The notes under the pieces were generated by a model. The model had not been told where the DNA came from and searched no databases. It saw nothing but the letters and a program-made list of their open reading frames with translations. A program made the translations under genes and the position numbers. A stretch of 64,000 nt of DNA from Ignavibacteriota bacterium (lineage in GTDB: Bacteria; Bacteroidota; Ignavibacteria; UBA10030): positions 1,984,001 through 2,048,000 of the forward strand of contig OY969585.1 of assembly GCA_963701295.1 (NCBI GenBank), in the 5' to 3' direction. Shown here piece by piece: positions 37,218 through 53,367 of the stretch. How positions within the stretch are numbered: the first letter of the stretch is position 1; each line of letters starts with the position of its first letter.

Positions 37218-37548
37218 AAGGAACGAATGAAATTCTGATGGAAGATTTTCAACTATAGAGGAAAATCTTGATTCCATTGGACTTTCTTACCTCGTTGATT
37301 CGTACCTTTTCGATTGATATATATCAAAAATGCTATTGTTGTTTGTTGTCTTCTAATAGCATTTTGTAGAAAAAGCTCTATATTGAACCACATTAAACTA
37401 AAACGCAATCATATGTCCAATACAATAGAGCTTGCGTTACGACGTTCCATTCATATCTCCCCGCATTATTTCTGTTGTGCCAGTTTATTTCTCTATAATA
37501 TAATCACTCGCGGAGACATTCTTCAAAAGTTGAAGAAATGAGGTTGCT

Positions 37549-38889
37549 ATGTCCGATTACATCGATAAAATAATGATTCATGTGAAAGCGAAGAACTCCA
37601 ACGAACCGGAGTTTCATCAAGCGGTAGAAGAAGTATGCGAGTCTTTGGAGCCGGTGTTTGCGCGTCACCCGGAATACCGTGCTGCAAAAATTCTTGAGCG
37701 TATGGTTGAACCCGAGCGGATTGTCATCTTTCGTGTTCCATGGATGGATGATCAGGGTGAAATTCATATTAACCGCGGATTCCGGGTTCAGATGAACAGC
37801 GCAATCGGTCCATACAAAGGAGGATTACGATTCCATCCATCCGTTACACTGAGCATTCTTAAATTTCTCGCATTCGAACAAGTGTTCAAGAATAGCCTTA
37901 CAACGCTGCCGATGGGCGGCGGAAAAGGCGGTTCAGATTTCAATCCTAAAGGGAAGAGCGATAACGAGGTGATGCGATTTTGTCAAAGTTTTATGACAGA
38001 ATTATTTCGTCATATCGGTGCAGATACAGATGTGCCGGCTGGAGATATTGGTGTCGGAACACGTGAGATCGGATTTCTCTTCGGACAATACAAGCGGCTT
38101 ACGACAGAATTCACAGGTGTGCTGACTGGAAAAGGATTGAATTGGGGCGGTTCCCTTATCCGTCCAGAAGCGACAGGATTTGGTGTTGTTTATTTTACTG
38201 AGGAGATGTTAAAGACGAAAGGCTTAAGTATTGCTGGAAAAACAGTCGCAGTGTCCGGTTTTGGCAATGTTGCTTGGGGTGCAGTCACAAAAGTTGACCA
38301 ATTGGGAGGGAAAGTGGTTACACTTTCCGGTCCTGATGGTTTCGTGTATGATCCGGATGGTATTAAAGGTGAGAAGATACATTATATGCTTGAGATGCGT
38401 GCAAGTGCCAAAGACGAAGTAAAACCTTATGCCGATAAATTCAAGGCGCAATTCTTCTCTGGTAAAACGCCGTGGGGTGCAAAGGTAGATGTTGCTTTGC
38501 CGTGTGCTACACAAAACGAGCTTGACGAAAATGACGCGAAAGAGCTTGTGAAAAACGGATGCGTTTGCGTGTGCGAAGGAGCGAACATGCCAACAACAAT
38601 TTCGGGTCTCAAAGTATTTCATTCAGCGGGGATTCTTTATTCTCCCGGCAAAGCGTCGAATGCTGGTGGCGTTGCAACCTCTGGATTGGAAATGAGCCAA
38701 AACAGCATGCGTTTACCATGGCCCAAAGAAGAAGTTGACACACGGTTGTATCAGATCATGAAAAGCATTCATGATACATGTATGCAGACCGCAGAACGAT
38801 TTGGCGAACCAGGTAATTACGTTTTGGGTGCAAATATCGCTGGATTTTTAAAAGTCGCTAATGCTATGCTTGAACAGGGTTTGGTATGA
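37549..38889 (+). CDS. gdh: Glutamate dehydrogenase, predicted NAD-preferring paralog
   Basis: [37 protein letters not shown]; cofactor loop VSGFGNVA...LSGPDG. Confidence 0.93.
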   Translation: MSDYIDKIMIHVKAKNSNEPEFHQAVEEVCESLEPVFARHPEYRAAKILERMVEPERIVIFRVPWMDDQGEIHINRGFRVQMNSAIGPYKGGLRFHPSVTLSILKFLAFEQVFKNSLTTLPMGGGKGGSDFNPKGKSDNEVMRFCQSFMTELFRHIGADTDVPAGDIGVGTREIGFLFGQYKRLTTEFTGVLTGKGLNWGGSLIRPEATGFGVVYFTEEMLKTKGLSIAGKTVAVSGFGNVAWGAVTKVDQLGGKVVTLSGPDGFVYDPDGIKGEKIHYMLEMRASAKDEVKPYADKFKAQFFSGKTPWGAKVDVALPCATQNELDENDAKELVKNGCVCVCEGANMPTTISGLKVFHSAGILYSPGKASNAGGVATSGLEMSQNSMRLPWPKEEVDTRLYQIMKSIHDTCMQTAERFGEPGNYVLGANIAGFLKVANAMLEQGLV

Positions 38890-42803: not shown

Positions 42804-44201
<1,398 letters not shown>

Positions 44202-51376: not shown

Positions 51377-52114
51377 TCATCGGTTCTTCTTTTTGATGGA
51401 AGAATCATGTGCAGAGCCGTGTGCCACAAGCAAATCGCTGACCTTTATAAAAACAAACCCTTTGCATCGAAGTGATTGGATGATCTCAGGTAGCGCTTCC
51501 GCGGTATGCCAGCCGCGACCATTCACATGCATCACAATGATGGAACCATTTCGTGCATGAGAAACAACGTACCGAATAAGACGCTCTCGCGAAATGGTAG
51601 AATCGGGATCGCCGGAAGCGAGGTCATACATCACTGTGACAAGACCAAGCTTCTGCGCGATACGTTTGATTCTTCCATTTGCCTCTGCGTATGGAGGACG
51701 AAATAAATGTGAAGAAGTTTTAGAAATGTTCTTTAACAATAATTCTGTTCGTTGTAATTCATGCTGAACGCTGTCGTCTGAAATATTCATGCAATGAGGA
51801 TGTGAAAAGCTATGGTTTCCTAATTCAAAGTTTTGTACGGATGCGAGCATTTTTGTTTCCCGTCGATGCTTCATGATCCACTTTCCACTCAAGAAAAATG
51901 TCGCTGGTACACCGGAATCGACAAGTGTTTGGACGATGCTTGAATCAAATCCGCCGTGTGTGGAAGAAGGACAAGCGTCAAATGTCAATGCAATCTTCTT
52001 CTCGATTCTTGGACCATGAAACAAGGCAAGTGTGTCTGTTTGCTCGGACTGTACAAGAGCACTGCTAAAAAGGAAGAGGATTTGAATTATAGTGATCATA
52101 TCTATCGGTCTCAT
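51377..52114 (-). CDS. Polysaccharide deacetylase (NodB/CE4)
   Basis: IALTFDAC, ATFFLSG, GNHSFSHP, FRPPY, GSIIVMH; signal peptide. Confidence 0.92.
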   Translation of the reverse strand: MRPIDMITIIQILFLFSSALVQSEQTDTLALFHGPRIEKKIALTFDACPSSTHGGFDSSIVQTLVDSGVPATFFLSGKWIMKHRRETKMLASVQNFELGNHSFSHPHCMNISDDSVQHELQRTELLLKNISKTSSHLFRPPYAEANGRIKRIAQKLGLVTVMYDLASGDPDSTISRERLIRYVVSHARNGSIIVMHVNGRGWHTAEALPEIIQSLRCKGFVFIKVSDLLVAHGSAHDSSIKKKNR

Positions 52115-52463: not shown

Positions 52464-52492
52464 TTGCTCTGCGGGGACTTTTTGCCTATATT
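52464..52492 (+). promoter_or_regulatory. Probable tRNA-locus promoter
   Basis: TTGCTC-17 nt-TATATT, about 20 nt before the outer tRNA-like element. Confidence 0.6.
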
Positions 52493-52538
52493 TCAACATG
52501 TTTAGTATAAATGCTGAAGAAGCTCAGTGGTAGAGCAG

Positions 52539-52651
52539 TCCCGATAATTTCACGCTGGTGTAGCTCAGTGGTAGAGCAGCGGTTTCGTAAACCGCAGGTC
52601 GTCGGTTCAAGTCCGACCACCAGCTCAGAAAAACAACGGAAATTATCGGGA
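52539..52651. repeat. 13-bp perfect inverted repeats bracketing tRNA-Thr
   Basis: TCCCGATAATTTC (52539-51) and GAAATTATCGGGA (52639-51). Confidence 0.9.
52554..52625 (+). tRNA. tRNA-Thr (anticodon CGT), CCA not encoded
   Basis: GCTGGTG/CACCAGC acceptor, GCTC/GAGC D stem, GCGGT-TTCGTAA-ACCGC, GTCGG-TTCAAGT-CCGAC; 72 nt. Confidence 0.97.
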
Positions 52652-52751
52652 TAAACCGAAGGTCGGAGAAAGGTTCTCAACCGAAGGCTGATCCGCCTCT
52701 GACGGAAACTCCCAGCTTCAGCTCAGCGTCAGAAAACAGTTCTTGTTCCTC

Positions 52752-52803: not shown

Positions 52804-53367
52804 ATGTCATTTCTTGAAGTTTTTTTCATTGCACTCGGTTTAGCTTCGGATGCATTTGCGATTTCTATTAGTGCAGGATCAACTGGTGTGACGACAGAAC
52901 CGCGGGCTATGTTACGGTTATCTTTCCATTTTGGACTTTTTCAATTTTTAATGCCCATCTTTGGCTGGCTTGCAGGTTTAAGCATCGAACACTATATCCA
53001 AATGTTCGATCACTGGATTGCGTTCGGACTGCTTCTGTGGGTTGCTGTGCACATGATTCGATCTGCCCAAGCTGGTAACGAACGTGCCGTCCAACAAGAT
53101 CCCAGCCGGGGAATGATGCTGGTTATTCTCTCTGTTGCGACAAGTTTGGATGCGTTAGCGATTGGATTGAGTTTGACGTTATCGCAAGTATCTATTTGGT
53201 ATCCTGCTGTTGTTATTGGTATCGTTACAGGCGTTGTATCATTTGTCGGTATTTTGCTTGGTCGGCGGTTTTCCAAGAAAGTTGGAAAGTGGGCGGCTGT
53301 AGTAGGAGGTGTTTTACTTGTTCTTATAGCTGTTAGGATCCTTTTGGTTCACATTCTTCCTCTATAA
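52804..53367 (+). CDS. mntP: Manganese efflux pump MntP family
   Basis: ALGLASDAFAIS, FGLFQFLMP..GW, DHWIAFGLL, VATSLDALAIG. Confidence 0.9.
   Translation: MSFLEVFFIALGLASDAFAISISAGSTGVTTEPRAMLRLSFHFGLFQFLMPIFGWLAGLSIEHYIQMFDHWIAFGLLLWVAVHMIRSAQAGNERAVQQDPSRGMMLVILSVATSLDALAIGLSLTLSQVSIWYPAVVIGIVTGVVSFVGILLGRRFSKKVGKWAAVVGGVLLVLIAVRILLVHILPL

Follow-up and report, generated by a model that had tools for sequence, protein, structure and literature searches.

A threonine tRNA gene nested in the anticodon arm of another: a probable mobile replacement cassette in Ignavibacteria

Introduction

Integrative elements that target tRNA genes restore one tRNA end at attP, encode an integrase and delete nothing, and group I introns occur in the anticodon loops of bacterial tRNAs. 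SsnA, a single-domain GIY-YIG protein, carries out hairpin-directed cutting of single-stranded DNA (ssDNA), and the main text of its description gives the Ssn system an insertion sequence (IS)-like layout and likens it to REP/RAYT (Chenal et al. 2025; PMC11893778). Here we describe a locus that shares traits with each of these systems, in a 64,000-nucleotide stretch of an Ignavibacteriota bacterium (assembly GCA_963701295.1, contig OY969585.1, positions 1,984,001 to 2,048,000; hereafter the window, within which positions are counted). An intact tRNA-Thr(CGT) gene lies there between inverted repeats inside the anticodon arm of a second tRNA-Thr gene, whose two halves remain on either side. We consider it very likely that this is a mobile cassette that replaces the tRNA gene it enters. 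Our searches of the open-access literature turned up no account of bacterial tRNA genes that are nested or split by a palindrome.

Results

The window has a single tRNA gene by ARAGORN and Rfam (75 bits), a tRNA-Thr(CGT) at 52554-52625/6, which is also the only Thr(CGT) gene of the genome. It is carried intact in a 113-bp cassette (52539-52651) whose flanking inverted repeats, 52539-51 and 52639-51, pair perfectly over 13 bp, and the cassette as a whole sits in the anticodon arm of a second tRNA-Thr. This tRNA-in-tRNA layout had been proposed in an original prediction made from the sequence, and all of its elements lie at the positions claimed. The outer 5' half is 88% identical to the inner copy over 26 nt, 18 of them in an exact run. 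In 3000 stretches of 75 nt taken at random from this genome, no flanking inverted repeat reached 12 (maximum 11), and none of 200 shuffles of the unit folds as well as the original (z -4.1).

Relatives show both the empty and the filled state of this locus (G000 denotes this genome, and the other G and L numbers the relatives and loci compared). Upstream of mntP, where the prediction had suggested looking, three relatives (G001, G005 and G012) have an uninterrupted GCTGAAG-type tRNA-Thr(CGT), and the outer 5' half in the window differs from the intact G001 allele at 1 of 26 positions. A fourth relative, G010, has the same nested layout with outer halves identical to the G001 gene (0/26 and 0/39 differences), and compared with that gene exactly 8 nt are missing, CGGTTTCG, positions 28-35, two anticodon bases included. 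The match of the G010 halves to the empty G001 gene identifies the outer gene as the resident and the 113 bp of the Thr cassette as an insertion, at which the target lost 8 nt and nothing was duplicated. The outer gene is thus distinct and no target-site duplication, as had been argued. The cargo differs from the G001 allele at seven positions: six belong to three pairs swapped in a compensatory way and the seventh is a loop base, so the two alleles diverged while both were functional.

The two genes have fared differently since. Across seven congener loci the cargo tRNA is invariant (0/73 differences) and the outer halves decay. Outer halves or arms have decayed without compensation in this genome and in G003, G004, G008 and G013; the right part of the nest is lost in G009 and G015 and the left part in G008; and G004 has two uncompensated arm mismatches together with a tyrosine-integrase island within the already nested inner copy. 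The outer halves would appear to be pseudogene relics. The G010 unit folds as two complete cloverleaves. The prediction had also allowed for a nested precursor from which the outer halves are joined, an idea that finds no support, given the loss of 8 nt with two anticodon bases and the uncompensated decay.

The unit in the window and its surroundings are made up as follows:

52464..52492, + strand: promoter-like TTG-N20-TATATT motif upstream of the unit, the putative promoter, below the consensus-scan threshold
52513..52538, + strand: 5' half of the displaced resident tRNA-Thr(CGT), GCTGAAG allele, comprising the 5' strand of the acceptor, the D arm and G27
52539..52551, + strand: left arm of the cassette, TCCCG core and extended stem, pair probabilities 0.97-1.0
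52554..52625, + strand: intact cargo tRNA-Thr(CGT), GCTGGTG allele
52626..52638, + strand: A-rich trailer within the cassette, with near-identical copies in G010 and G004
52639..52651, + strand: right arm of the cassette, CGGGA at its end
52652..52676, + strand: decayed 3' half of the resident tRNA, T36 through the TTC of the T loop, with 52652-65 matching the inner copy at 13 of 14 positions
52677..52706, + strand: second insertion, 30 nt long, which forms a double hairpin in the T loop of the defunct outer gene
52707..52723, + strand: end of the resident tRNA, with the 3' strand of the T stem, CTTCAGC (52716-22) and a discriminator T, by comparison with L005 and L002
52752..52769, + strand: intrinsic terminator-like hairpin followed by a T run
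52804..53367, + strand: mntP, the downstream neighbour, outside the element (PF02659, E 2e-48)
51377..52114, - strand: polysaccharide deacetylase gene, the divergent upstream neighbour, outside the element (PF01522, E 2e-27)

Besides several substitutions, the outer gene in the window carries the 30-nt double hairpin in its T loop, so that what had been taken for a T-arm relic is a T arm indeed, but one that holds a further insertion. Near-identical copies of this hairpin are found in G004, in G023 and in the outer gene of a tRNA-Leu(TAG) unit of this genome described below, and G010 and G001 are without it. One promoter and one terminator had been predicted for the unit as a whole. The terminator-like hairpin is present; a consensus scan found no + strand promoter ahead of the unit, but 17 of 30 related loci have the TTG-N20-TATATT motif ahead of their tRNA-Thr(CGT), a conservation which suggests that the motif may act as the promoter. 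Rfam detected only tRNA on the unit, with no riboswitch, ribozyme or group I core. As the prediction had stated, no mobilising enzyme was found in the window in Pfam and profile scans of its open reading frames (ORFs) (62 of 79 plus 2 more), which returned no PF00589 integrase. The window also contains two glutamate dehydrogenase-family genes 4 kb apart, at 37534-38886 and 42840-44201.

The nesting in the window is real. The genome is a single 3.64-Mb contig, and four studies of related strains gave Logan contigs that span the left junction in 2 of 4 runs and the right one in every run (4 of 4); contigs from RNA libraries, with DNA carry-over possible, are uninformative on level, strand and ends. 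A search of sequencing runs found none of this strain (all shares <=0.13).

Recurrence of the hairpin clarifies which of its parts is constant. In five relatives (G003, G006, G007, G044 and G060) the same Thr left junction leads into a bare hairpin with no tRNA, which makes the hairpin the constant element and the tRNA a cargo in its loop. Among all Thr loci fetched there are 18 distinct two-armed units, with cargo CGT or TGT, and TAA follows the right arm in 15 of them. An allele that is cargo in one genome can be the displaced resident in another, and both polarities are seen. The exact 13-mer of the arms occurs once per arm and nowhere else in the genome; of the repeat pairs that the prediction had proposed to search for, only the TCCCG/CGGGA core is shared. 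That core is itself over-represented, with 29 hairpins in the genome where eight control cores gave 1-7 each; three pairs have long arms, and one of these encloses a tRNA. A relaxed ARAGORN search allowing introns gave 683 calls, which we discarded as noise.

The genome has a second nest, at tRNA-Leu(TAG), the sole decoder of CTA, upstream of tig (G000:C1:857645-857852, L096). Here arms of the form TCCCGCAAA(A)C replace the entire anticodon arm of an older Leu gene, and the T loop of that outer gene likewise holds a hairpin insertion. Since the inner tRNA-Leu(TAG) is essential, it is presumably processed correctly from the nested precursor. Across cases the junctions are fixed, with the left one after G26/G27 and the right one mostly before T36 (Thr) or before position 44 (Leu, Val and Ala), and insertion removes 5-17 nt of the target.

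A generic pattern built on this layout matched 24 of 301 genomes across the class (control 0), and 8 of 27 loci, in 6 genomes, are truly nested. In metagenome and viral collections a generic pattern gave 135 loci, of which 33 have a tRNA, 7 are nested with both halves and 1 with a 3' half only; this search covered 12 of the 64 parts of the collection, one locus was left out of the count, and isoacceptors were judged by eye. The nested metagenome cases involve Thr, Val, Pro, Lys and Leu, including Leu(CAG), each within its own isoacceptor, and one Thr case has two successive left junctions. In every case seen, the cargo is an isoacceptor of the gene it displaced. The Thr left junction occurs in 3 of 151 genomes of a phylum sample, all three in this order and none outside the class, and records with it are mostly labelled as Ignavibacteria, Bacteroidota or Chlorobi metagenome-assembled genomes. 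The viral collections gave no match to the Thr junction, and none of 16 viral pattern matches was nested.

The same tRNA genes also host other rearrangements. In L014 (G028) a tRNA-Thr(CGT) is nested in another palindrome family (CCCGCCTGA / TCAGGCGGG), inserted between the CG and the T of the anticodon and without the 8-nt deletion. Dead tRNA-Thr copies stand head-to-tail with AGCTCA joints in L040 (G006), L041 (G060) and L057 (G044), AGCTCA being present twice in tRNA-Thr, once in the D stem and once at the 3' end. Islands in G004 (L038, G004:C5:22400-28300) and G007 (L045/L046) use these tRNA genes and duplicate about 40 nt of the 5' part, and the Leu nest of G004 is split by a 48-kb insertion (G004:C55:69044-117148). 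A 5' fragment of tRNA-Arg(CCT) beside an integrase gene (G000:C1:2839283-2839325) marks an ordinary island boundary.

Distribution of the Leu cassette is patchy. It is present in 9 of 16 congeners and 7 of 16 have the empty allele (states were read by eye and labelled before the tree was built). On a tree of tig the carriers are scattered among non-carriers, and a topology with all carriers in one clade is rejected (p-AU 7e-6). G005 and G012 share the Leu cassette with this genome and G010, yet it lies in their own subclade's resident allele; the two resident alleles show compensatory differences in the variable arm and have only TGG in common at the right junction. Two genomes of another order (G276 and G288) have a related Leu cassette, identical in its 11-nt arm, in a third resident allele. 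Because compensatory changes are not gained by a dead gene, the simplest reading is that the Leu cassette entered different resident alleles by independent insertion or lateral spread. G001 is empty at both loci yet takes its place in the tree among carriers, which shows that cassettes are also lost or intact alleles regained.

Short GIY-YIG genes offer a candidate for the enzyme that moves the cassette. This genome has four (PF01541, 86-90 aa), and three of them adjoin tRNA genes (Ala, Cys and Leu(CAA); G000:C1:2356095-2356530, 3414881-3415245 and 3297422-3297830; L031, L032 and L034) and are fused to partial tRNA duplications. The Ala-linked gene extends into an incomplete tRNA copy in which a TCCCG..CGGGA hairpin takes the place of the anticodon arm, the end of the Cys-linked ORF lies in the D loop of an intact tRNA, and the apparent start of the Leu-linked ORF directly follows the anticodon of a dead half. 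None of the four proteins has an NCBIfam family above cut-off; among PDB entries the tRNA-linked protein best matches UPF0213 (E 2e-10), with SLX1 weak. Homologues of the Ala-linked gene are found in 69 of 81 genomes of the order. Of the best 30 of 376 homologue loci (one of them the query), 29 lie within 250 nt of a tRNA, and in 14 the neighbouring tRNA copy has its anticodon arm swapped for a TCCCG..CGGG hairpin. G360 and G369 have a hairpin-killed resident tRNA-Val followed by a different Val allele and a nuclease gene, a side-by-side version of tRNA replacement. Of the linked nucleases for which the prediction had called for a search, GIY-YIG genes lie beside anticodon-swapped tRNAs, and the one RAYT-like gene has unrelated palindromes. 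In G002 about 14 GIY-YIG copies stand in tandem with a period of roughly 300 bp (G002:C2:365003-369130).

Discussion

The empty allele, the recurrence at other tRNAs and the GIY-YIG-linked anticodon swap bear out the central proposal of the original prediction, a non-autonomous palindromic element that strikes anticodon arms and brings a replacement tRNA. Our full account, to which we give a probability of roughly 0.6, is that the cassette spreads laterally and is moved in trans by a small tRNA-linked GIY-YIG protein of about 90 aa, probably the mover judging from the hairpin and junction that its genes share with the cassette. In the likely mechanism, the single-domain enzyme would cut ssDNA, with either the TCCCG..CGGGA hairpin or the base of the anticodon hairpin as its site, and repair would then copy the donor hairpin, with its loop, in place of the anticodon hairpin, using homology in the D arm on the left and 1-3 nt of microhomology on the right. 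Empty hairpins would kill the tRNA gene, such that single-copy genes would keep only hairpins whose loop holds the same tRNA. Transcription from the host promoter might yield a single precursor, with the inner tRNA then freed by RNase P and 3' trimming, and recombination between repeats could later prune the relics of the outer halves.

Several observations weigh against this account. None of the nested cassettes examined holds or abuts a GIY-YIG gene, so that nuclease and cassette are linked solely by the hairpin and junction they have in common. Enzymes of the GIY-YIG type cleave DNA by hydrolysis, and since they are not known to join strands, the strand-joining step is without an assigned enzyme. 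Homologues in 69 of 81 genomes are too common to show co-occurrence, and the other 16 of the best 30 of 376 loci are without the swap, having D- or T-loop hairpins or none. In the Thr units L142, L147 and L069 cargo and resident are the same allele, an arrangement that local duplication could also produce. The viral contigs revealed no vehicle, the tree is that of one marker gene, tig, a direct neighbour of the Leu cassette, and some of the patchiness could stem from repeated loss.

If the nucleases were separate tenants of tRNA genes, the nests might instead arise by host repair, through template switching or microhomology-mediated duplication at tRNA hairpins, followed by ordinary homologous recombination. 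The separation of nests from nuclease genes and the same-allele nests would fit, as would the use of AGCTCA, twice present in tRNA-Thr, as the tandem-array junction in G006, G044 and G060; but the Leu cassette has precise junctions in three resident alleles that share only TGG on the right side, and nuclease genes adjoin the same hairpin core and left junction, so that we regard host repair as unlikely. A mover of the HUH/RAYT or IS110 type, joining strands as for REPINs, seems to us a good deal less plausible again. It would suit a hairpin-bounded element without target duplication, and the genome does offer one weak Y1_Tnp gene and nine identical transposase-like copies (G000:C1:226327 and eight further sites), which from their motif may be IS110-like and which have at their end a 17-nt TCCCG hairpin, TCCCGACGCAGTCGGGA, found also in the dead tRNA-Thr copies of G044 and G060. 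Yet the Y1_Tnp gene bears unrelated GTAG-type palindromes, the cassette has neither a GTAG nor a CGTC tag, insertion deletes 5-17 nt of target, and the partner genes linked to tRNAs encode GIY-YIG proteins.

It is improbable that the unit is a functional RNA, whether an intron-like nested precursor or a tRNA mimic with a long stem for its anticodon arm. One might expect such an RNA to fold as G010 does, into two complete cloverleaves, and RNA-library contigs of relatives do bridge the junctions, allowing for DNA carry-over; excision would restore no decoder, however, because the anticodon is deleted, and the outer halves and arms decay uncompensated or are lost, with tRNA the only Rfam detection. 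That one or two tyrosine-integrase islands left the unit behind by duplicating tRNA ends is very improbable and largely refuted by the junction positions. Although the G004 and G007 islands do use this gene and duplicate some 40 nt of its 5' part, their junctions lie 3' of the anticodon with nothing deleted, and the cassette, by contrast, begins at G27 and costs its target 8 nt; the G004 island moreover lies inside an already nested inner copy, and two independent islands would leave no complementary arms. Misassembly of two strain alleles, which the prediction had named as what would overturn it, has almost no claim left, even though no run of this strain turned up: G010 has an identical layout, independent contigs span both junctions, and the decay is lineage-specific.

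Should the account we favour hold, it would provide a route for the horizontal replacement of core, single-copy tRNA genes, and show that a selfish element could occupy an essential gene without splicing. Widespread unannotated GIY-YIG proteins of about 90 aa would gain a concrete substrate and predicted cut sites, and they could be a source of small structure-specific ssDNA nucleases. Because standard annotation reports the inner tRNA only, nesting events are invisible in databases. We find it tempting to go further, tentatively and at somewhat less than even odds, and to see an undescribed class of mobile element without transposase or integrase, in which tRNA-dwelling GIY-YIG nucleases put their own hairpin in place of the anticodon hairpin, and cassettes that bring a spare tRNA replace alleles horizontally and repeatedly across lineages while holding a decoder hostage.

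Comparison with known systems

The Ssn system, with its NTS/SRM hairpins, resembles the loci described here in combining a single-domain GIY-YIG protein of about 90 aa with short hairpin repeats (main text of PMC11893778). Single-domain GIY-YIG proteins under the Ssn limit of 150 aa are present at 86-90 aa, elsewhere in the genome and outside the cassette. The SRM consensus, in contrast, has no match at the window unit, the Leu unit or the three GIY-YIG/tRNA loci, the tRNA-linked protein is 30% identical over 66 aa to the Ssn-type paralogue of this genome, and the word tRNA is absent from the main text of the Ssn paper (PMC11893778). The gene of that paralogue (G000:C1:2938500-2939600, L033) lies between arrays of the GTCATTGCG hairpin repeat, unrelated to tRNA genes. 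SegB of phages T4 and T6 is likewise encoded by a tRNA-linked GIY-YIG gene, whose product makes tRNA genes spread or multiply and is able to act in trans, but as described in the available text it is a phage double-stranded DNA endonuclease that recognises the T arm, and that text mentions no palindrome, split resident tRNA or nested replacement (PMC2330249, PMC13096335). The patchy distribution of the cassette is consistent with homing transfer of the Seg type.

REP/REPIN-RAYT systems and miniature inverted-repeat transposable elements (MITEs) are also small non-autonomous inverted-repeat elements that insert into one another and depend on an enzyme in trans, as far as the available text of PMC3733652 describes them. 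The cassette differs from REPINs in its flanks, GCAG and TAAA rather than a GTAG or CGTC tag, and in having no linked RAYT, the sole Y1_Tnp match having unrelated palindromes; and it differs from both REPs and MITEs in carrying a whole gene, targeting tRNA hairpins and deleting part of its target. Terminal inverted repeats without coding capacity are present, as in a MITE; in place of a target-site duplication there is an 8-nt deletion relative to the G001 allele, and neither many copies nor ends shared with an autonomous IS were found.

With tRNA integrative elements the cassette shares an insertion made harmless by the tRNA sequence it supplies, but it supplies the whole gene in a hairpin, leaves both halves dead, and has no PF00589 integrase in the window. 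Like tRNA introns and intervening sequences it is a structured insert in the anticodon arm, whereas, unlike group I, group II or bulge-helix-bulge introns, it has no ribozyme core, and its removal restores no anticodon, positions 28-35 being missing. On this comparison the element works in the manner of a REPIN or MITE, follows the tRNA-restoring integrative elements in its logic and has an SsnA-like candidate enzyme, yet lacks defining features of each; it is a further type of non-autonomous hairpin element and possibly a class of its own.
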